Below are positions 5,253-56,994 of a DNA stretch of 64,000 bases, one piece after another. Under the pieces are notes generated by a model. That model ran no database searches. It was not told the origin of the DNA and was given only the letters and a program-made list of their open reading frames with translations. Source of the DNA: Octopus vulgaris (Eukaryota); the NCBI GenBank assembly GCA_951406725.2, contig OX597820.1:110422001-110486000 (forward strand), written 5' to 3'. Numbering within the stretch: position 1 is the first letter of the stretch; each line of letters begins with the position of its first letter. The translations under genes and the position numbers were made by a program.

Positions 5253-8200
5253 AGCTATTTCGGCGCTCCATATAAGACGTCACTATGATGGCAGTGAAAA
5301 TCAGGATCGCCAGCGACATTATCAGACCCTTTAATGGTGAGGGCGATGTAGTGGCCAGGATTCGTAAAATCAGGCTGGTGGCGAGACTGCAAGGCATAAG
5401 CGACATAGCAAGCCTTTTTGGCACTGTATTTAGAAGGGAGCACGTTGACTCCATATCTTGGATGAGGAAGAACGTCTGAGCGAGAAGATTGAGCAACGTC
5501 TGAGAGACGCTTACACTGAGTCTGAGTACACAGCTTTTGCTAAGTTGGGTACGATTAGAAGGATGGGAGAACAGGTGGATGAATACGTGACAGATGTTCA
5601 AAGGCTAGCCACGCTAGCTGGGTTTACAGGAGAAGGCCTGGAGAAAGCAGTGCAACTGGCGTTTGTAAGTGGGTTCCCTGACGATGTAGGGATTCACCTA
5701 CAACAATTGGCCGGAAGTAAAAAGATGGCGCTGAGCGAACTTGTGACTCAAACCCGTGTGTTGACGCGAAACACTGGATGGAAGGCGATAGCAATGGTGA
5801 TAGTGATGGTGGTAACAGAGGCCGGAGAAAGACACGAAGAAGCCTACCGTGCAACAACAGCGGCCGATCTCAGGCCGGTGTTTTAGATGTCAGGGGTCGC
5901 ACATGGCAAGGGAGTGTACGCAACCAAGGCCCATCTGCTTTCAAGGCAGGAAGACAGGGCACATTGCCCATGATTGCGACCAGGGAAACAACCGTGGGGA
6001 AGTTGCTGCCTCTCGAACGCTCCCCGCAAACGAGTAGAGTTGCTTTTGGAGACGCTGCCCTTAATTGATGTCGAGGCTGAGGGGAAGACGTTCAAGGCCC
6101 TCGTGGATATGGGTTGCACGACCACCTTCGTGACTTCAAGGGTGATGAAGAAATGGAATGGGGCAAGTAGCGACCGGGCAGTCAACGGCAGCGAAATCCG
6201 TTGCAAAGGCATCAGCAAGGTAGAGATAGTGGTGCGAGGCGCAACGCTAAGGCTGCAGTTAATTGTGGTTGAACGCGTGATAGATGGGGTTGATGTGGTG
6301 ATGGGGATGGATGCCATCAACTGCCTCGATGGCTTTAGTATTGTAGGAGATGAGGTCACGTTCGGAAGTGTGGGGGCGTCATGTGCTGTGAGTCAGGATA
6401 GCCAGAGAGAGCAGAGCCCTGTGAGGCTTACACCATTAAGGACAAAGATTTTCAGGCGGCGTTCAATGGTCAGTGGTGGATGGTAGAGTGGCGATGGAAG
6501 GACGAGCCCCCAGTGCTGAAAAACAGAGTGAGCTGCTACCAGCATACCCTGAAAGGTCACGCCAGGGTCGAGTTTGAAGACGAGGTGGAGAGGTGGATCG
6601 AGGAAGAGGTCCTTGTTTCGTGTGAGGAGGAGGTAATGGGCGGAGTGCTACCTCTGATGGCGGTGGTGCAGCCAACGAAGGGAAAAGTCAGACCAGTGCT
6701 GGATTTCAGAGAGCTAAACGAGTATATATTGTGCCACACGGGAGGCGAGGCGAGGCGACTTTTGTGGCGAGATGTTACGTGCATGGAGACAGTCAACCCA
6801 GGCAGAGTCGATTGTCGACTTGAAATCGGCATACATGCAGCTCTGTGTGAGCGACAAACAGTAGCGATATCAGCTGGTGCGGTACAAGGGCCGGATGTAC
6901 TGTTTAACCAGGCTGGGTTTCAGACTGAATTCTGCTCCGAAGATCATGGCGGCAGTGCTTAAGAGGGAACGAGGACAAGATTAGAAAGGCCACCAGTTCC
7001 TACATAGACGACATTTTGGTGGACGAAACTGTAGTGCCAGCCAACGAGGTAGTGAGACATCTGGAGAAGTTTGGACTGATTGCTAAGCCACCAGAGTCGA
7101 TGGAAGGGGGAGCTGCACTGGGGCTGAAGCTGCAAAGAGATAGATTGGGTGAGTTGGTGTTACGGAGAGGGAATGAAATCCCAGAGCTGAGTTCCAGCAT
7201 CAGCAGAACAGAGCTGTTCTCGGTGTGTGGGAAGTTGGTCGGTCACTACCTGATCGCTGGATGGCTGCGCACAGCATGCGATAGGGGTTGTGTTGGAGAT
7301 CGAAGGCGCTGAGGTGGAGGACGCGATCTGGCTTCAGAAAGCTGATGACTTTAACCACATCAATGTTGCCGAATTAGACACGGTGCTGAAAGGGGTGAAC
7401 TTGGCCCTGAAATGGGGGCTGCACTCAATCGAAATCCAGACAGATTTGGCCACTGTGCTTGGCTGGGTAGGATCGGAGATCACCAGTAAGAGGAGAGTTC
7501 GGACGAAAGGTGCCATGGACATGTTGGTGAAGTGCCGTCTAGGAGTTCTAGGAGAATTGATTGCCGAGTTCGGACTGAAGCTGAATGTGGGTTTCGTGCC
7601 TTTGAAGAGAAACAGGGCAGACGCACTGACCAGGGTGAAAAAGGCGTGGTTGGAGGAACCAGAGGAGGCACAGAAAGGGATAGCTGCGGTGTGTCGGTTG
7701 AATGACTCGGAACTGAAGAGACGGCACGCTATGTATCACTTAGGTGTGGACAGGACCCTGTATCTTGTGAAGAAAATTGATAATGACGTTACTAGGAGAA
7801 GCATCCGGGAAGTGGTTGGGAGCTGCGACAGGTGTCAGTCCATTGACCCTGCTCCATGTGGGCATGAGCAAGGAAACCATTCGGTGGAGCACAAGTGGAA
7901 GAGGCTAGCTGTGGATATGACGCACTACCGTCAGGGAATGTATCTTTCCATGGTCGAATGCAGGCTGGGAATTTGGAGTGAGTTGAGAATGGGCATTGCT
8001 GACGAGATGGCGCAGATTTTGAACAGGATATTTTTAGAGAGGGGTCCTGTGGAAGAATTGCTAATAGACAACGGGGCGGCATTTCATTCGGAAGCATTGA
8101 GGGATATGCTCGACCGGTGGAAAGTGCATCGCTTGTTCAGAGCAGCATATAGGCACCATTGGACAGTCAAGGCCATAGCAGAAAGAGGGCACATTTTGCC

Positions 8201-8636
8201 ACTGGAAGCAATTTTTTGGTACAACATGTCTTCCCGATCTGGACAAGCTGAAGAATCTGTGCTGCACAGAGCGGTATTTAAATATGAATGGAGGCATCTG
8301 AGTAAAGTGCTGGAGGGCCAAGAGGAAGAGAAGGGACCCGCTTGCGTGAAAATTGGGGAGGAAGTCTGGGTAAACCACCGAAGGCCCGCTGTACGTCTCA
8401 ATGGAGCAGAGGAACGGTGATGGCGGTCAATTCCAGAAACAACGTATCCATGGATGGAATGCTGCGACATGTCTTGGACCTTCACAGGATTGTCGCTTCG
8501 TCAAATGAACATTGTGGAGAGAAGGAGAACGAGGTGCCTAGCCTGAGAAGATCTCAACATGCAAGGTGCCCTCCCAGTTGGATGGTGGACTTCGACATGG
8601 AGTAGAGAGAATGTGATCTTTAAGATCAGGGTGGCG

Positions 8637-22815: not shown

Positions 22816-23081
22816 TTTCCAGACTAAGTTTCACAAAAGTGTAATTTGTTGTGAGGAGTGAAAAGAAATCTAAAAACGAAGTATTTTATGTCTTGCATTC
22901 CATTTCCAGACTAAGTTTCACAAAAGTGTAATTTGTTGTGAGGAGTGAAAAGAAATCTAAAAACGAAGTATTTTATGTCTTGCATTCCATTTCCAGACTA
23001 AGTTTCACAAAAGTGTAATTTGTTGTGAGGAGTGAAAAGAAATCTAAAAACGAAGTATTTTATGTCTTGCATTCCATTTCC
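22816..23081. repeat. Perfect tandem triplication of an 87-bp unit
   Basis: agactaagtttcac recurs at 22821, 22908 and 22995. The array is bounded by tttcc microhomology. Confidence 0.95.
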
Positions 23082-23913
23082 TATTTTAACAACAGTGGCA
23101 TTTCTTCTCTTTTTAGGGCTTCAGGATTTCAACATGAACTTGGCAGGGTGCTATGCCTTGCAAAAGGGCAAGCTGTGATTTTGTCTGGAATTGCTTATTG
23201 AGTAGTTGCAGCTTCTTTGTGTATCTACTGGCCATTCCCCTATCTGTAAACTGGGGACACCAAAAATAATAGATTAAACAAATATTTGAAATAGATATTT
23301 TCTGTTCAACTTTATATGCATATCTACAAATATTGACAGATAAAAATTTCAGTGTCACATCTTGTGATTGCCCTGGTTTTATGAAATAGACTTCTTGTTT
23401 TAAAATGATCAAAGTTAAAATTTTCTATCAAAGTTGCATGTTAATTTGAGTTTCAAACACCAACTTAATAATAACAAAATTATTTTACTACATTCTCCAT
23501 TATTTTCAAAATTAAGTAAAGCAAAGGTGATATATTTCAACAAAAATATGAGTAACAAAGAGTTAAAGAGAAAAGACTGTGTTTAAAGAAACATGCTAGA
23601 AGAACACTAAGTTGTGTTTGATAAGAAAAATTCTATTAAACCCATTACACCTGATTAATTCACTTCAAATTTTGTAGAGATGTTATAATTATTTGTCTCA
23701 TATTTAACATCTAATAACAAATATTTCAATTAGCAGGCAAAACTTCTTTATTGGACAAAGTGAGGTACAGACACAAAAATTACCTAAAAATGGAAGCTGT
23801 ATGAATTCAGAGAATTTTGAGATTCTTTAAATATTCACTTCATCTTTTGTGATTCTGCTTTTCTTCCTTTCTTTGTTTTGCACATTTCAATTTGCTTATT
23901 TACTAAATAACTT

Positions 23914-24161
23914 TATTCTATTGTGTCTGGGGAGAGTCATTTTCTTTTTGTGCCTTATTATGTAACACACCCACCGGTAAAATTTCCACGTTTTTCTTAT
24001 TTTTATTGTCGTAAAATTTTCGTTGCATCTTGCAACATTTTCAATAGTTTAACAAAAATTTTAGGACAATAAAAATAAGAAAAACGTGTAAATTTTACCG
24101 GTGAGTGTGTTACATAATAAGGCACAAAAAGAAAATTACTCTCCCCAGACACAATAGAATA
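23914..24161. mobile_element. Palindromic (foldback) MITE with arms of about 105 bp, TA-flanked
   Basis: tattctattgtgtctggggagagt..ttgtgccttattatgtaacac is the near-perfect reverse complement of gtgttacataataaggcacaa..actctccccagacacaatagaata. Confidence 0.88.
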
Positions 24162-24838
24162 TGCTTCAACACACGAACTCATATAAAGAATCTTGCAAAC
24201 CAAATCCAAAAACGAAATATAAATAACTTTAGGTTGCTTATTAATATATAAAGACTAATTTCAAATTCAGGGCCTATATTTTTAATGTAGAGGTTCAAAC
24301 CATTTAATGCTTTAGTGTAGACTTTGGTAGAATAAGACAGCCATTCCTGCAATCAATTTAAATGTCTCAAACAGTTACAAATAGTTAGCTCGACAGTGAC
24401 TGCATCTTTGATGTTATGCTTGTTGAAATGTTCAATTTTCAAGAAATACAAGTTTTCAGTTTCAAACCCAGCCTTTGGGCATTGTGAATAGATGATTGTG
24501 TATGAAAATAGGAACATGAAATATGAGGTTAACAGCCCTCATAAAACTTTGTCATTAAAAGTACTTTAAAGTATATATAAACTTATGCATTAAGAACTTA
24601 ATTTTCTATTTGTAACCTTAACATAAGACTTAATAACATTTATGTAATAACAACTTTTAATAAAAACACTTTTTAACAACTATCCAAATAATTTGATTTT
24701 GGCTAAAATTCTACTTTTTAGAGAAAAATAAATTGTTTAAATAAAACCAAAACAGAATAACGAAATATAGAAATTATTACCACAAGTGGCAGTCTTCAAT
24801 ATTTGAATTAATAAAATATCCATAGGAATAAAATATTC

Positions 24839-24844
24839 TTTATT
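24839..24844 (-). terminator. Candidate polyadenylation signal (AATAAA) of SYCP1
   Basis: tttatt on the plus strand about 60 nt past the stop codon. The AT-rich context makes a chance match plausible. Confidence 0.35.
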
Positions 24845-24904
24845 TTTAATTTGGTTCTGTTTTTCTTTTTGTTCTCTTAATAATCTGATTGTTAACTTGT
24901 GTCC

Positions 24905-27571
24905 TTAATCATCAGATCCAAACCCAAACACAGAATCCATATCAAACCAAGCATATTTGTCAATTGAAGATGCTAGTGATCTCTTAGACTTTGGGGATTT
25001 GAAAAACTTCTTTACAGGTTGAGTTTCAGATTTTTTCACATTTGCTCTCTTTGGTTTAACAGTATTTAAATTTTGTTTCACTGGACTTTTTTTTGTCTTA
25101 TTATTTCCAGTCAAAGTTCTGGTTTTCCTACTTCTTGCTGAAATGTTATTTTCAAGATTTTGTTGATTCCCAGTAGTAAGGACCACCTCTTCTAACTTAT
25201 GATCAGAAACATTATCTTTCTTGGGTGAATTTATGTTCTTCTGGTGTTGTTTCAATAATGGGGTCCTTATTGTGATTTTATCGTTCCTTTGGCATTCAGA
25301 TACTGAGGAGTCTGAATCAGACACAAGCATCATATCATCAGAATTAAACACCACTTTTCTCTTCTTGGAAGTTAAGAAGTTTGATTTAAAGGAATTTACA
25401 TTTATTCTTGAAGGTGTCATATTAATTGGATGTTGTGGTGTCATCAGGACTGCCACTTGAGGTTGTTTTCTTGTTGGAAACACTGTTTGCATGGTATTTT
25501 CATACATTTCCTTTTTCATATTTTCTTTCTCCTTTAGCATTATATCTATTTTTTCTTCAAGTTGGATATTGTTCTCCATTTGATATTGAACATTCTGTCT
25601 TAGCTCAGAAATTTCACTTTTATACTGTAAGATCTCTTTCTCAAATTCACTTGTTTTTTCTTTCAAATCATTTTCATGTTTCAATTTTTGTTCTTTGATT
25701 TCACTTTCATTCTTTGCGTAGATTTCTTTAGTCTTAATGTCAAATATTTTCTGATTTTCTTTTTTATACTTTTCAAGAGTATTCACCATTTCTTCTTTTT
25801 GATTTTCACTTACTTTTAAAATTCTCTCCTTATCTTGAACTGCATTTTCTTTCAAAATTGTCATTTGTTTAAGTTCTTCTTTATAACCCATTAAGACTAC
25901 TTTTTCTTGTTGACATTCATCAATTTCTTTTTGTATCGTTTGAAGTTTATCTTTATATTCTTCAATTTCTGTTTCTTTTGCCTTCACTATATCTGCATAT
26001 TTACTAAATGAAATTGCATTTTCTTCAATTGTTTTATTTAATTTGTCAATGTGAGAAGAATATTTACTTTCATGATTTTTCATTTGTGTTTTTAGATTAG
26101 ATATTTCATCTTCCAGCAGATTATTTTCATTTCTTAGCTCTGATATAATATTTGTCAGTTCATTAGATTCAACTGAAGATGTTTTTTTAAGTTCTTCAAT
26201 GTTTTTCAAGGCCTCATTTAATTGTTCCACTTTTTCTTGAAATTTGCCTTTTAGTACTTCTGACTCATTGCTTAGGGTTTTGTATTTTTCTTCTAAAGTT
26301 TTAAGTTTTTCTTTTGTTTTTTCATGCATATCAGCAGCATCCACATTCAAAGCCTTTGCATTGACTATTTCATCATTTAACAATATAATGTTGCTATTGA
26401 GGTTATTTATCTTGGCAGATTTGGAATTTAACTGGGCCAGTAGATTGTCTTTATGGCTTATTTCTTGTTTTAGATTTTCACTCAACTCTGCATTCTCTAA
26501 AACTAAGATATCTTTATCACTCTTCAAGTCTTCAATCATTTTATTTGCTGATGTATATTTAACATTTAATTCTCCACATTCTTTTTCTAGTTTTTCGTAA
26601 GCTTCATTTGCTTCTTTTAAAAGATTTTCTGAAGAAGCCATTATTAATAAAGCTTCATTACTTTTCTCAGTTGTTTCAAATTTAAGGGTTGTGTATTTAA
26701 ATTCCACTTCTGAAAGACATTTCTTAGATTCTTCATAATCAAACTTTAGTTGATCTTTCTCCTCTTTAGCATCATGTAAATCTTTATTTAATTGTTCCAA
26801 CTTTTCATTTCTACAACTAATTTCATTCTGTAACTCCTTATTGATATTCTGCATATCTGCTATCCTCTTTTCTAAAACTTTTCTCTGCTTTTCCTTCTCC
26901 TGAACAATATTATTAATTTCATTTTTTAATTTATTTTCTTCGTCTTTGGCTGAAATATTTAAATCATTGAATTTTACTGAAAGTTCTTCAAATTTTTCAA
27001 AATGTTCTCTTTCTTTATATTTTAATTCATTGCTTTCTGCTTCACATTGCATCATTTTATTCTCTACAGTTTGAGAATGTTCTTTGACAATGTTACACAT
27101 TTTTCGAGTAAAATCAATTTTTTTCAAAATTTCTTCTCTGTTGCTAATTTCTTCTTGCATCTTTTGACTTAAGTTTTCATTTTCTATTTGCAATTCTATG
27201 AAAGATTTTCTAAGATTCTCAATAGTTTGGGTCAATTCCCCTATTTTTTTCTCTTTTTGTTTGCTTTCAGCTTCTGTGGAAAGTTTCCACTCCCTTATTT
27301 TTTCAGCTTCCTGTCGGAGTCGACTATGCAAGGAAAATAGTTTGCATTCTACATCTTGGGTATTTAATGATTGTTTCTCATGTTTTGGTTTTTCTTTAGA
27401 GACAAGATTTTCTTGGAGCGTTTGAAGCAGAGTTGTACTTTTATGCATAATAAGAGGCATTTTAAGTTTTTTTGTTAAACCGAGACCATAGTTTGTAGAC
27501 TCAGAACTGTTCGCCAAATTTTGATCAGTCTTCTCATAGACTTGAGACATCGATGCTAAAGTACTTTGCAT
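24905..27571 (-). CDS. SYCP1: Synaptonemal complex protein 1 (transverse filament protein), single coding exon, 888 aa
   Basis: Residues about 77-164 (LHSRLRQEAEKIREWKLSTEAESKQKE..IENLRKSFIELQIENE..TRKMCNIVKE) align without gaps to the N-terminal coiled-coil motif of mammalian SYCP1 as I recall it (VYSKLYKEAEKIKKWKVSTEAELRQKE..IEAQRKAIQELQFGNE..TRHLCNLLKE). About 600 aa of coiled coil follows. The basic S/T-P-rich tail has KKRKVVF..SDSS (cf. mammalian KKRKMAF..SDSS). There is an in-frame stop 33 nt upstream of the ATG. Confidence 0.88.
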   Translation of the reverse strand: MQSTLASMSQVYEKTDQNLANSSESTNYGLGLTKKLKMPLIMHKSTTLLQTLQENLVSKEKPKHEKQSLNTQDVECKLFSLHSRLRQEAEKIREWKLSTEAESKQKEKKIGELTQTIENLRKSFIELQIENENLSQKMQEEISNREEILKKIDFTRKMCNIVKEHSQTVENKMMQCEAESNELKYKEREHFEKFEELSVKFNDLNISAKDEENKLKNEINNIVQEKEKQRKVLEKRIADMQNINKELQNEISCRNEKLEQLNKDLHDAKEEKDQLKFDYEESKKCLSEVEFKYTTLKFETTEKSNEALLIMASSENLLKEANEAYEKLEKECGELNVKYTSANKMIEDLKSDKDILVLENAELSENLKQEISHKDNLLAQLNSKSAKINNLNSNIILLNDEIVNAKALNVDAADMHEKTKEKLKTLEEKYKTLSNESEVLKGKFQEKVEQLNEALKNIEELKKTSSVESNELTNIISELRNENNLLEDEISNLKTQMKNHESKYSSHIDKLNKTIEENAISFSKYADIVKAKETEIEEYKDKLQTIQKEIDECQQEKVVLMGYKEELKQMTILKENAVQDKERILKVSENQKEEMVNTLEKYKKENQKIFDIKTKEIYAKNESEIKEQKLKHENDLKEKTSEFEKEILQYKSEISELRQNVQYQMENNIQLEEKIDIMLKEKENMKKEMYENTMQTVFPTRKQPQVAVLMTPQHPINMTPSRINVNSFKSNFLTSKKRKVVFNSDDMMLVSDSDSSVSECQRNDKITIRTPLLKQHQKNINSPKKDNVSDHKLEEVVLTTGNQQNLENNISARSRKTRTLTGNNKTKKSPVKQNLNTVKPKRANVKKSETQPVKKFFKSPKSKRSLASSIDKYAWFDMDSVFGFGSDD

Positions 27572-27913
27572 CGTGTACGCAATGCTTGAACTGGTTTCTT
27601 TTTATATGAAAGTATTTAACATTCCATTGAAGTGCGATAACAACTGAATGCCTGTCGTCTGCTTATAAAGGTGAAGACGAGAGGAAGACGCTAAAAACTC
27701 AGCAGCGCCCCCAACAACAATTCACCAGAATTATCTCCCTTATTTCGCGCATGCGCCATTCGCCATTAATCTTCCATGTGTTTCATCTCTCTTTGATCGC
27801 GAATTGAAACTTACGAGTGTGTTGTTAGATACTCTTCACCAACCTGACTGTGTATTATTATTATTATATTTAGAGTGGTTAAAATAATAATTTATTGGCT
27901 TAAACAAACAACA
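27572..27913. promoter_or_regulatory. Putative bidirectional promoter shared by SYCP1 and SNRPA1, with NRF1-type palindrome GCGCATGCGC (27747-27756) and two CGCCATT (YY1-like) motifs (27754-27767)
   Basis: Divergent ATGs are 342 bp apart. CpGs are locally retained in otherwise CpG-poor unique DNA. Motifs were read directly from the sequence. Confidence 0.72.
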
Positions 27914-27995
27914 ATGGTTAAACTATCTGCTGAATTAATAGAACATTCAGCTCAATATACCAACCCGGTTAGAGACCGTGAATTAGATCTGCGAG
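27914..27995 (+). CDS. SNRPA1: U2 snRNP protein A' coding exon 1
   Basis: MVKLSAELIEHSAQYTNPVRDRELDLR(G); donor gag|gtaat. Confidence 0.96.
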
Positions 27996-28319
27996 GTAAT
28001 CATGTTTCCTTCTTGATCTTTTCTTTAATCATCAAACTTTCTAATTTCCAATGATATCGCTTAATAAATTTATGTTCTAGTTATTATCCCAAAAGAATAT
28101 TATTATTATCATACCTGTATAACTCTCTTTATGCGTCATGAAATTAAAAAAATTAACGACTTAATACTAGCTGAAAAATGAAACTTTTGTGCATTTTCAA
28201 ATTCTGTTACGTACAATTTGAATAAAAATCAATATAGACAAGTTGGATTAATGAAATTTGTTGTTTTAACTTGAAGCTTTGACAAATTTTTTTTTAAACA
28301 ATATGTACGAGTTTTAAAT

Positions 28320-28528
28320 ATTGGTTTCAAATTTTGACACAAAGCCATCAATTTCGGGGGCTGGAGTAAGTCGATTACATTGGCAATACTTCTCAATTGG
28401 TACTTATTTTATCAATTCCTAACGGATGGAAGGCAATGTAGATTCAGCGGAATTTGAACGTAAAGAAGGACGAAATACCGCTAAAAAATTTGTCCGGCGT
28501 GCTAACGGTTGTGCCAGCTCGCCGCCTA
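28320..28528 (-). mobile_element. tRNA-derived SINE (second family) in intron 1
   Basis: Minus-strand head aggcggcgagctggcacaaccgttagcacgccgg..gttcaaattccgc and body gataaaataagtacc. Confidence 0.7.
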
Positions 28529-28835
28529 TGACTTTTAAATATTAACAACAGACAATGGTAAATAAACCGTTTCAGACACACAACTGGTTCCTAGCCCAAA
28601 TGTCGCAACATTTCAGTGGTCAGGCCTGTATTTTCAGTTAATTTGACTGACAACATATTCTAAAATTTTGTCGCTATTTCAAATAGCACAAACAACTCCC
28701 GTATTTTCTCTAATTTTATACAGTTATTAACAATGAACTACATTTTTACTGCTTTACATTGAATAAACATGAGTGTCATTTGAGTAAATGTTATAAATTT
28801 AACTCTCCTAATAAAATTGTCTTATTGTATTTCAG

Positions 28836-28876
28836 GCTATAAAATTCCTGTTATTGAAAATTTGGGCACTACTTTG
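28836..28876 (+). CDS. SNRPA1: U2 snRNP protein A' coding exon 2
   Basis: tttcag|(G)YKIPVIENLGTTL|gtgaat. Confidence 0.95.
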
Positions 28877-41292: not shown

Positions 41293-41399
41293 GATCAATT
41301 TGATACCATAGATTTTTCTGATAACGAAATTCGAAAACTGGATGGATTTCCTCTCTTGAAGCGCCTAAAGTGCCTACTTCTGAGTAACAACAGAATAGT
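41293..41399 (+). CDS. SNRPA1: U2 snRNP protein A' coding exon 3
   Basis: tgtag|DQFDTIDFSDNEIRKLDGFPLLKRLKCLLLSNNRI(V)|gtaagt. Confidence 0.97.
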
Positions 41400-43508
41400 G
41401 TAAGTATATTTTACATTTATCTGTGTTTGTGTGTATTTTTAATTCTTTACATTTTTCCAATAAAGAAAGAATTGCTGGCGAAGAAACAATGCTTCCTCAT
41501 AAACATTTAACTAATACTGGATATTTTTAGTGTTCTACTTACATATTGAATTTTCAGAATACAAGTTAAATCTTCTCTTCATTTACTTGAAAGCCTCAGT
41601 TTTCCAGATTATTAAAGTACTTAGTGCCATAACCAAGTGTGTCTCTGAGTACAAATGTAGTTTTATAATAATTTTAAGTTTTGAAGTTCCCTTTCTTACT
41701 AATTTTGAATGAATTAAATGTTCACATCAACTGGCAATATCAAGTATTTGTGTTCACATAGACCAGGCAGTATCTAGTTTTTGTTTTCTGTCACAATCAA
41801 CTCTCAGACCTGATGTGGAAGTTTTGGTGAGAATATTACACCAATATTTATAGTATTGGAATTTAAGAATATACTCAGCACCAATAATATATTTTTATGC
41901 TTGAGTACAGACTTTCCTACAGGTGGTGTATTATATTATTTTAGCAAGGGTGTCATGCCTTCATTTTGGAGAAGACAGCTGTTGATCAGATGTAATGTTT
42001 TCCACAGAACTGTAACATTTAGTAAGTTTTTGGGATGCAAAATGTATGGTTATTGAGTCTGACATGTTGGTTACAAATCCAAGCTTCCTGCTGATATTGG
42101 CATTATTTTCAACCTTGCATAATGTTTGCCCTTGTGTTTTTTCTTGATGTATGTTAATCTAGCAGTGTTTTGGGTTGTTAGACTGTTATCATAAGATGTT
42201 GTTCTCTTCATTTTTGAGCACTTATTTGAGATATTGTTTTTGCTGTTGTTTGGTAGGGGCTTTTTTAGCGATACTATTTTGCATCAAAATCTGTATTGGC
42301 TTATTTTCCCGTGTATTGTGTAAGTGTATATTAATATTTTGTAAAATGCAGTGATTGTAGCAGTCATAAGTGAGGAGTAATCAGATACCTTTTCTTTTAA
42401 ACCATAGCTTTATTAATCAAAATTTCCTCCACACATCATTGCACTCTCTTTTTAAAACCTGTCTGCTCATTAGTCAGTGCTTTAATGAACTCATAATGGT
42501 TTTTGAAGAAAATTATGTATAACACTTCTCCATAATATTTGTTTAAACTATCATATTTCTTTATCTTACAAGTCAGTGTTTTTATTCTTGGATACAGTAT
42601 TTATCCCTACTATTTGCAAGCTAGTTTATATATTTCAATTTCACCTTCCATAGTTCTGCAGAACTATGGAAAATAGTCCTACAGATTGTGGCATTCTGTA
42701 GAATATTAGTATTTTTTATCAGTATCCAACTATTCAATTTCTGCTTCCAAATTATGCAGTCTTCTTTCAGCCTTAGTAAAAGTTTTGCAATTAGTAGTAT
42801 GTTTTATTGCTGTTAGCACAGTATTCCTTCTTTATTCTATTGATCCATAATGTATTATAATTAGAATCCTTGTTTCTCCAGGTCTTAGGCTAAAATGATT
42901 TAAATTCTTCTTGAAAAGGAGCTCTTTTCACTGATGTTTTCTGTCATTGAGTAATAATATCGCTTAGAGATTAAATGCAAATTTATTAATGATGGCTTGT
43001 TAATCTGTCATTTTCAGTAATAGTTTTCCTCTCAAGGTTTTGAGTTATTATGTATATATGTGTATTTACACATTTACGTGTCTGGCCATTGATTCATCTC
43101 TTCTCTTGAAAATTTATATTTTGATAATTTTGCTTTCTGACTTTCATTTTCTTTTTTTCATGCAACTGGTCATGGTGATGGAATCTTCTCTATTCAGTTT
43201 TCAGTTTTTTGCAATACCCTCTCAGTCATTACTTATGTTGACACATTTTAAATTATTCCTAACTATATCTTTATGCTAGTAATGGTCTGCCAACCTTGTG
43301 TTATGAGTTTTTTTAGTTGTCCATAAAAGACTTGCTTTTGGAACTCTACCATCATTCATTTGTGAAATATGGCCACACCATCTCAGTTGAGTCTTGATTA
43401 GGAAAGTTTTTATGGGATATTATACATAGAGAAGATATCACTGTCCCTCACTCACATTTTATTTTGCATATTTTTCTCAGGCATCTCATATGAAAGCTGT
43501 CTGGTTAA

Positions 43509-56891: not shown

Positions 56892-56994
56892 CTTACTCCG
56901 GAACCCAGTTACAAATAAGAAAAACTACAGACTTTATGTAGCACACAAATTACCTACCGTTCGAGTATTAGACTTTCAAAGAATCAAACAGAAA
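56892..56994 (+). CDS. SNRPA1: U2 snRNP protein A' coding exon 5
   Basis: ttcag|(S)LLRNPVTNKKNYRLYVAHKLPTVRVLDFQRIKQK|gtgagt, the LRR-cap motif. Confidence 0.97.

Follow-up and report, generated by a model that had tools for sequence, protein, structure and literature searches.

How a gene regarded as meiotic comes to lie head-to-head with a housekeeping splicing gene, and how one direction of such a pair could be confined to meiocytes, is the question raised by a locus of Octopus vulgaris, studied here in a 64-kb window (the whole stretch of DNA that was analysed). An earlier note on this DNA proposed that SYCP1, as a retrocopy, had captured the promoter of SNRPA1, and asked whether SYCP1 is transcribed in the soma and controlled post-transcriptionally. 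This question has a precedent in the SYCP1/CHIC pair of amphioxus, where somatic transcripts have been described (PMC5803294). The label 'meiosis-specific' is, for the octopus gene, an assumption and not an observation.

Locus layout and coding sequences

Both genes are divergent, with the SYCP1 ATG at 27571 on the minus strand and the SNRPA1 ATG at 27914 on the plus strand, leaving the 342 bp between them that the earlier note had described. The features assigned to the genes are given below, where X1, X10 and X17 are RNA contig sets from three runs.

24905 to 27571, minus strand: SYCP1 coding sequence, a single uninterrupted ORF of 888 codons, with a Pfam SCP-1 match and gap-free RNA contigs
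23735 to 24904, minus strand: possible long SYCP1 3' UTR, from X10 and X17 records (unstranded, separate contigs)
27572 to 27707, minus strand: likely SYCP1 5' leader, without splicing in this part (contigs X10, X1 and X17)
27802 to 27913, plus strand: likely SNRPA1 5' leader, whose start may lie upstream by as much as 27689 (contigs X10 and X17)
27914 to 27995, plus strand: SNRPA1 coding exon 1 (LRR_9 match, splice joints)
28836 to 28876, plus strand: SNRPA1 exon 2 (splice joints)
41293 to 41400, plus strand, 3' end approximate: SNRPA1 exon 3 (splice joint)
near 56900 to 56990, plus strand: a later SNRPA1 exon

The 888-aa product of the minus-strand ORF matches Pfam SCP-1 at residues 62-210 (E 4e-17, 61.9 bits against a curated cut-off of 23) and clusters with proteins named SYCP1 or SYCP1-like in Octopus sinensis and O. 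bimaculoides. Its similarity to gastropod and scallop SYCP1 takes in both the N-terminal region and a C-terminal motif, so that membership of the family is seen both in the profile score and in orthology with molluscan SYCP1 along the length of the protein. The ORF is intact in three Octopus assemblies, and gap-free RNA contigs run over 24786-27671 and 24877-27707. Judging from family membership, a transverse-filament role in meiocytes is putative. Near residue 240, about 40 coiled-coil residues present in the related sequences P0002 and P0003 are absent from the octopus protein; the coleoid-type SYCP1 (core of 888-910 aa) also falls short of the 1044-1128 aa found in other molluscs, and the synaptonemal complex may be narrower as a result.

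Regarding the 3' side, AATAAA occurs at 24844, 24007, 23917 and 23752 in the possible UTR. Inside it, at 23904-24219, lies an element that matches itself in inverted orientation (249 bp, 91%); this element is skipped by the contig of X10, which belongs to a related species, and is likely a young MITE-type insertion. Early polyadenylation, suggested by patchy 3' cover in X1, was not used as evidence; in the ORF itself AATAAA is at chance level (6, with a mean of 6.0 in 1000 synonymous shuffles), and 5' splice-site words number 1 versus 2.5 in the same kind of shuffles. Elsewhere in the window, an 87-bp unit is present at 22827-23081 in three copies arranged head-to-tail, without differences in the 81 nt that were compared; the array is either an assembly artefact or the product of a very recent duplication. 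A GC-rich stretch (50-53%) at 5563-8420, in which ORF fragments resembling gag, protease, reverse transcriptase and integrase were recognized by eye, is likely a decayed LTR retrotransposon.

The plus-strand LRR_9 gene, which we take to be SNRPA1 (U2A'), shows GT..AG joints 27995>28836 and 28876>41293 in three of the four runs examined. SNRPA1 is a spliceosome gene expected to be essential in every cell, and SNRPA1/U2A has reportedly been studied in spermatogenesis. In its first intron, a CpG-rich stretch at 28250-28750 falls on a repeat of high copy number (depths reach 35636) and is thus not to be counted as promoter.

RNA contigs entering the interval

The three runs come from three studies, X10 differing from the locus by 75 changes; they carry no RNA record or tissue label, and their contigs are unstranded, start sites not being readable from them. 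On the SYCP1 side, the contigs are colinear with the locus to 27680 (X1, 822 of 822 nt), 27707 (X17, 2831 of 2831 nt) and 27671 (X10, 2886 of 2890 nt), covering 100-136 nt past the ATG, with ends that differ by 36 nt. On the SNRPA1 side, they start at 27802 (X10, with 22 letters unaligned) and 27689 (X17); the contigs of the two genes share 19 nt in X17, which means that the starts may overlap or be located elsewhere. As contigs of both genes enter the interval, much of the 342 bp is likely leader, with a motif cluster near the middle, and the leaders leave a core of about 130 bp, 27672-27801, which holds the E2F/NRF1/CGCCATT cluster. The shared local promoter that formed part of the capture claim thereby gains support, and one element would probably serve both directions. 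The distance also agrees with the usual bound of less than 1 kb between the starts of a bidirectional promoter, the ATGs being 342 bp apart and the contigs of both sides ending within the interval. Taken together, the anatomy of the locus and the shared core are regarded as highly probable.

These contigs bear on another explanation, in which SYCP1 starts at a distant non-coding exon and the interval is the promoter of SNRPA1 only. The earlier note had itself named such an exon as contrary evidence; amphioxus SYCP1 has a multi-exon 5' UTR (PMC5803294), and contigs can miss 5' exons. However, the X1 and X17 contigs lie wholly gap-free on the locus, X10 nearly so, and no distant upstream exon was present among the contig pieces listed for the three runs, making this the least probable of the explanations weighed, and very improbable in itself.

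Two uORFs are found in the SYCP1 leader, starting at ATG 27627 (3 codons) and ATG 27622 (6 codons), and both end before the main ATG; by our estimate this is about the chance yield of an AT-rich leader. SYCP1 is covered by contigs in three of four runs, the same three with spliced SNRPA1 joints, and the fourth, X21, has neither and is uninformative. Contig depth, a poor measure, differs between the two genes in opposite directions in X10 (37.7 versus 17.6) and X17 (11.8 versus 73). In 18 of 20 matching runs (the very large X15 and X16 left out) the word share was at least 0.29, against 0.18 expected from SNRPA1 exon 1 alone; broad expression was not concluded from these shares, 3 of the 18 runs having been examined by contig.

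CpG content and motifs of the interval

The interval has 14 CpG, with an observed/expected ratio of 1.18 versus 0.36 for the 64-kb window, a level reached in 26 of 1274 overlapping windows of 342 bp, and its GC is only 37%. CpG retention, as claimed before, is therefore confirmed. The interval also appears to be free of transposable elements, as judged without a TE library: blastn gave no match elsewhere in the window, and contig depth in its bin is 0-46 versus 841-35636 in the next, repeat-bearing bin. The elements recognized in it are the following, with consensus forms for NRF1, E2F, YY1 and MYB that we presume to be the standard ones; chance levels were obtained from 5000 dinucleotide shuffles of the interval and from 187 real tiles.

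27672 to 27801, no strand: inferred promoter core, 47% GC, 9 CpG, O/E 1.36, outside the listed X10 pieces and covered in X17
27747 to 27756, no strand: NRF1-type palindrome GCGCATGCGC, centred about 180 nt from the start codon of SYCP1 and 162 nt from that of SNRPA1
27743 to 27750, plus strand: E2F-type TTTCGCGC, overlapping the palindrome
27754 to 27760 and 27761 to 27767, minus strand: tandem CGCCATT, weak YY1-type cores
27641 to 27646, plus strand: CAACTG, a MYB-type hexamer, at chance level

The central perfect palindrome is present as reported, and GCGCATGCGC occurs once in the window. An NRF1-type core arose in 2/5000 shuffles and any perfect palindrome of at least 10 in 1865/5000, so that the element is notable as an NRF1-type site and not as a palindrome. 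Regarding CGCCATT, it had been stated that the palindrome overlaps both copies; the first copy does overlap it, whereas the second only abuts. The two copies together were found in 1/5000 shuffles, in a post hoc test, but their YY1-type reading did not hold in its strict form, as GCCATNTT has 0 matches in the interval. The MYB-type hexamer lies where the earlier note had placed it; as a functional site it is not beyond chance (807/5000 shuffles, 43/187 tiles), and it falls inside the SYCP1-side contig cover. A TATAAA at 27664 was also rejected, being at chance level (1948/5000).

The E2F-type site, overlooked before, is less common (170/5000 shuffles, 2/187 tiles). It suggests a second explanation, in which the core is shared, and the SYCP1 direction is shut off in the soma by E2F/DREAM-type repression at TTTCGCGC and opened by a germline activator in meiocytes, with SNRPA1 on. 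The overlap of this site with the NRF1 palindrome would suit such a switch, as would the silencing of mouse germline genes by E2F6 (PMC8195999), although the E2F6 motif given there, TCCCGC, is unlike the octopus site, and the MYB hexamer supplies no activator site above chance. At the RNA level, the intronless sycp1 of Ciona is found mainly in late primary spermatocytes within the testis (PMC9776925), so a retro-SYCP1 can be stage-restricted in its transcripts, which counts against the explanation we prefer, given below; the SYCP1/SNRPA1 depth ratio, poor as it is, is also reversed between X10 and X17. On the other side, amphioxus SYCP1 is broadly expressed from its shared promoter (PMC5803294), and the promoter-methylation route of the mouse would hit SNRPA1 too. 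The directional switch is thus considered possible, with the chances rather against it.

Intron loss and origin of the gene

The coding region of octopus SYCP1 is intronless where other molluscs carry introns, as seen in ORF fragments and isoforms, not gene models. A profile search gave 146 SYCP1 matches, 52 of them of at most 260 aa. The short ORFs ending at profile positions 95-100 continue with Val in six of six cases, and those ending at 116-122 (n = 15) with Gln-Val in 10, Gln-Ala in 3 and neither in 2, as reading frames running into GT donors are expected to yield Val or Gln-Val after the end of the match. The octopus ORF reads through both sites, at 27254/27253 and 27188/27187. One of the six Val-continuing ORFs shares 77% identity with Mytilus across 48 aa, and in Mytilus itself a stretch of 24 aa inside the protein distinguishes two SYCP1 isoforms. 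The match of one Logan ORF to abalone SYCP1 (96.6%) is confined to the final 58 aa. Isoforms of Gigantopelta were dropped as evidence of coding introns, as they differ at the N-terminus only. PMC5803294 describes SYCP1 as a gene of several exons in vertebrates, echinoderms and lophotrochozoans. Since other molluscs have introns where the octopus ORF is continuous, the proposed retro-origin is supported.

The event seems to be old. In a tree of 17 rows and the first 330 residues, three relatives, 35-40% identical to the octopus protein and 66-68% to P0002, fall into one group with octopus (97/99). Two of them are full-length, come from ENA contigs 148 kb and 44.8 kb long, and are probably squid- or cuttlefish-like genomic ORFs, apparently intronless; if so, the loss of introns likely predates the octopus-squid (coleoid) split. 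A further full-length SYCP1 of 1149 aa, P0070 (ENA, 12.4-kb contig), is 30% identical to abalone and possibly represents another intronless lineage. Metagenome pattern scans for cephalopod loci with their flanks confirmed none of 110 and none of 596 matches.

It has to be considered whether introns were lost in place by cDNA gene conversion, or SYCP1 moved with its own NRF1 promoter, the layout being ancestral or due to a later rearrangement, so that no capture took place. No scar of retro-insertion is seen, as 23001-24905 contains no stretch of at least 7 T that could be a poly(A) relic, although such a lack is expected if the event is old. In mouse germ cells, meiotic genes are among the targets of NRF1 (PMC6900092), and therefore the site need not derive from SNRPA1. 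In addition, P0003 carries a 91-aa N-terminal extension, probably a read-through of upstream DNA, whose codons permit an exact AANATGGCG at nt 27 and a one-mismatch NRF1 site at nt 50-51, about 220-245 nt upstream of the aligned start, in the order and strand of the octopus cluster read towards SYCP1. Such a pair appeared in 2/400 peptide shuffles and 3/104 stop-free window frames, in a post hoc test by back-translation; it hints at conservation as a lead only, is silent on adjacency to SNRPA1, and equally fits a motif travelling with SYCP1. Against these points, the removal of every coding intron usually points to retroposition, retrocopies of SYCP1 are reported in amphioxus, Ciona and mouse (PMC5803294), and a degenerate cephalopod-like SYCP1 fragment crosses the ancestral intron site. 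This fragment, P0151 (Logan, 1056-nt contig), is 48% identical to P0002 and likely a processed pseudogene in a cephalopod. Retroposition rather than in-place loss is thus the probable route, and an origin without capture is judged unlikely.

The parent gene would probably have been lost. The octopus ORF could instead be a duplicate, with a multi-exon parent still doing the meiotic job. Three protein searches, each scoring about 8000 candidates, listed no second Octopus-named SYCP1 among their matches, although one of them also missed known cephalopod matches, which leaves some room for such a parent. With 888 codons kept intact in three assemblies, a surviving parent is considered very unlikely.

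Comparison with known systems

As described by Garstang and Ferrier (2018, PMC5803294), amphioxus SYCP1 is a retrogene with a single exon; it took the place of its parent, came under the bidirectional promoter of CHIC by co-option and is expressed in somatic tissue of the embryo. The octopus locus is alike in the family involved, the single coding exon, the head-to-head position with an unrelated, broadly expressed gene and the inferred promoter co-option. However, its partner is SNRPA1, in another lineage, with ATGs only 342 bp apart; the multi-exon 5' UTR of amphioxus is not seen in the octopus contigs; and its core retains CpG and has an NRF1-type site, whereas the amphioxus promoter is described as lacking a CpG island. 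Furthermore, parent loss and somatic expression were demonstrated in amphioxus, while the octopus case is known from genes and unlabelled contigs. It is therefore likely an independent and more compact repeat of the published design.

In the same paper, a single-exon SYCP1 that replaced its parent in Ciona and retrocopies of Sycp1 in mouse are mentioned, having retroposition in common with octopus; a shared promoter is not described for them in its text. O. bimaculoides SYCP1 is included in its alignment and is not remarked as intronless in that text; SNRPA1 is mentioned nowhere in the main text, and the exon counts of its Table S1 may include O. bimaculoides. The earlier note's remark that retrocopies can gain a neighbour's promoter agrees with the mammalian catalogue of Carelli et al. 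(2016, PMC4772013), which covers head-to-head recruitment and orphan retrogenes; those cases concern mostly broadly expressed genes, whereas the octopus gene encodes a structural component of the synaptonemal complex in a mollusc.

Regarding head-to-head pairs in general, about 10% of human genes are so arranged (PMC3082894), and enrichment of NRF1, YY1 and E2F motifs is listed for bidirectional promoters (PMC10887517), in accordance with what had been stated for NRF1 and YY1. The octopus interval resembles these in its divergent starts closer than 1 kb, retained CpG and NRF1- and E2F-type sites; it differs in the absence of a strict YY1 site and in its 37% GC, and its motifs are read from sequence alone. 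A literature search lacking most subscription papers returned no report of the octopus SYCP1/SNRPA1 arrangement, and no fitting paper on mammalian meiotic head-to-head gene pairs. Such pairs are known in mammals.

Proposed mechanism

The preferred explanation, held with moderate confidence, is that an old retrocopy replaced the multi-exon parent in coleoids and is driven from one bidirectional, NRF1-centred core, with control exerted after initiation. The odds given to the alternatives overlap in part with it and do not sum to one. Octopus SYCP1 would be an old retrocopy that likely replaced a multi-exon parent in coleoid cephalopods, and one unmethylated, NRF1-centred core of about 130 bp would likely fire towards both SYCP1 and SNRPA1. 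This promoter would be kept open in the soma, since SNRPA1 should be required in all cells. NRF1 binding is sensitive to methylation. Given the need for SNRPA1 everywhere and this sensitivity, vertebrate-style promoter methylation could not silence SYCP1 alone; the methylation by which germline promoters are silenced in mouse (PMC8195999) would silence both genes. Low somatic transcription of SYCP1, higher in meiocytes, is thus predicted, and the protein would be confined after initiation, with leader uORFs, a long 3' UTR and RNA turnover as candidates. The uORFs and the possible 3' UTR of more than 1 kb are candidate post-transcriptional controls, neither being above chance.

The CpG pattern is consistent with an unmethylated core. 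The SYCP1 ORF has 12 CpG against a mean of 30.4, with 0/1000 synonymous shuffles as low, and its observed/expected ratio falls from 0.55 over the initial 350 nt to 0.13 in the remainder. In Nautilus, promoters are unmethylated and gene bodies methylated (PMC12532940); CpG kept in the interval and depleted in the ORF fits this pattern, although the whole window is CpG-poor.

A broader and more tentative view, which we hold to be doubtful, is that at least three animal lineages (amphioxus, Ciona and coleoids) replaced SYCP1 by a retrocopy, at least two of them on a housekeeping bidirectional promoter, and that in cephalopods the position would have been kept since before the octopus-squid split, with somatic transcription and post-transcriptional confinement to meiosis. 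If true, a core meiotic gene would have convergently exchanged its germline promoter for a constitutive one with control at the RNA level.

Significance

The principle is already known from amphioxus, and the octopus instance is apparently new. Octopus is likely the third animal lineage in which the gene of the main synaptonemal complex filament is intronless, and likely the second in which SYCP1 stands on a neighbour's promoter, turning the amphioxus anecdote into a testable recurrence. With its core of about 130 bp and a presumably essential partner, the locus would offer a compact system for germline confinement without promoter methylation.
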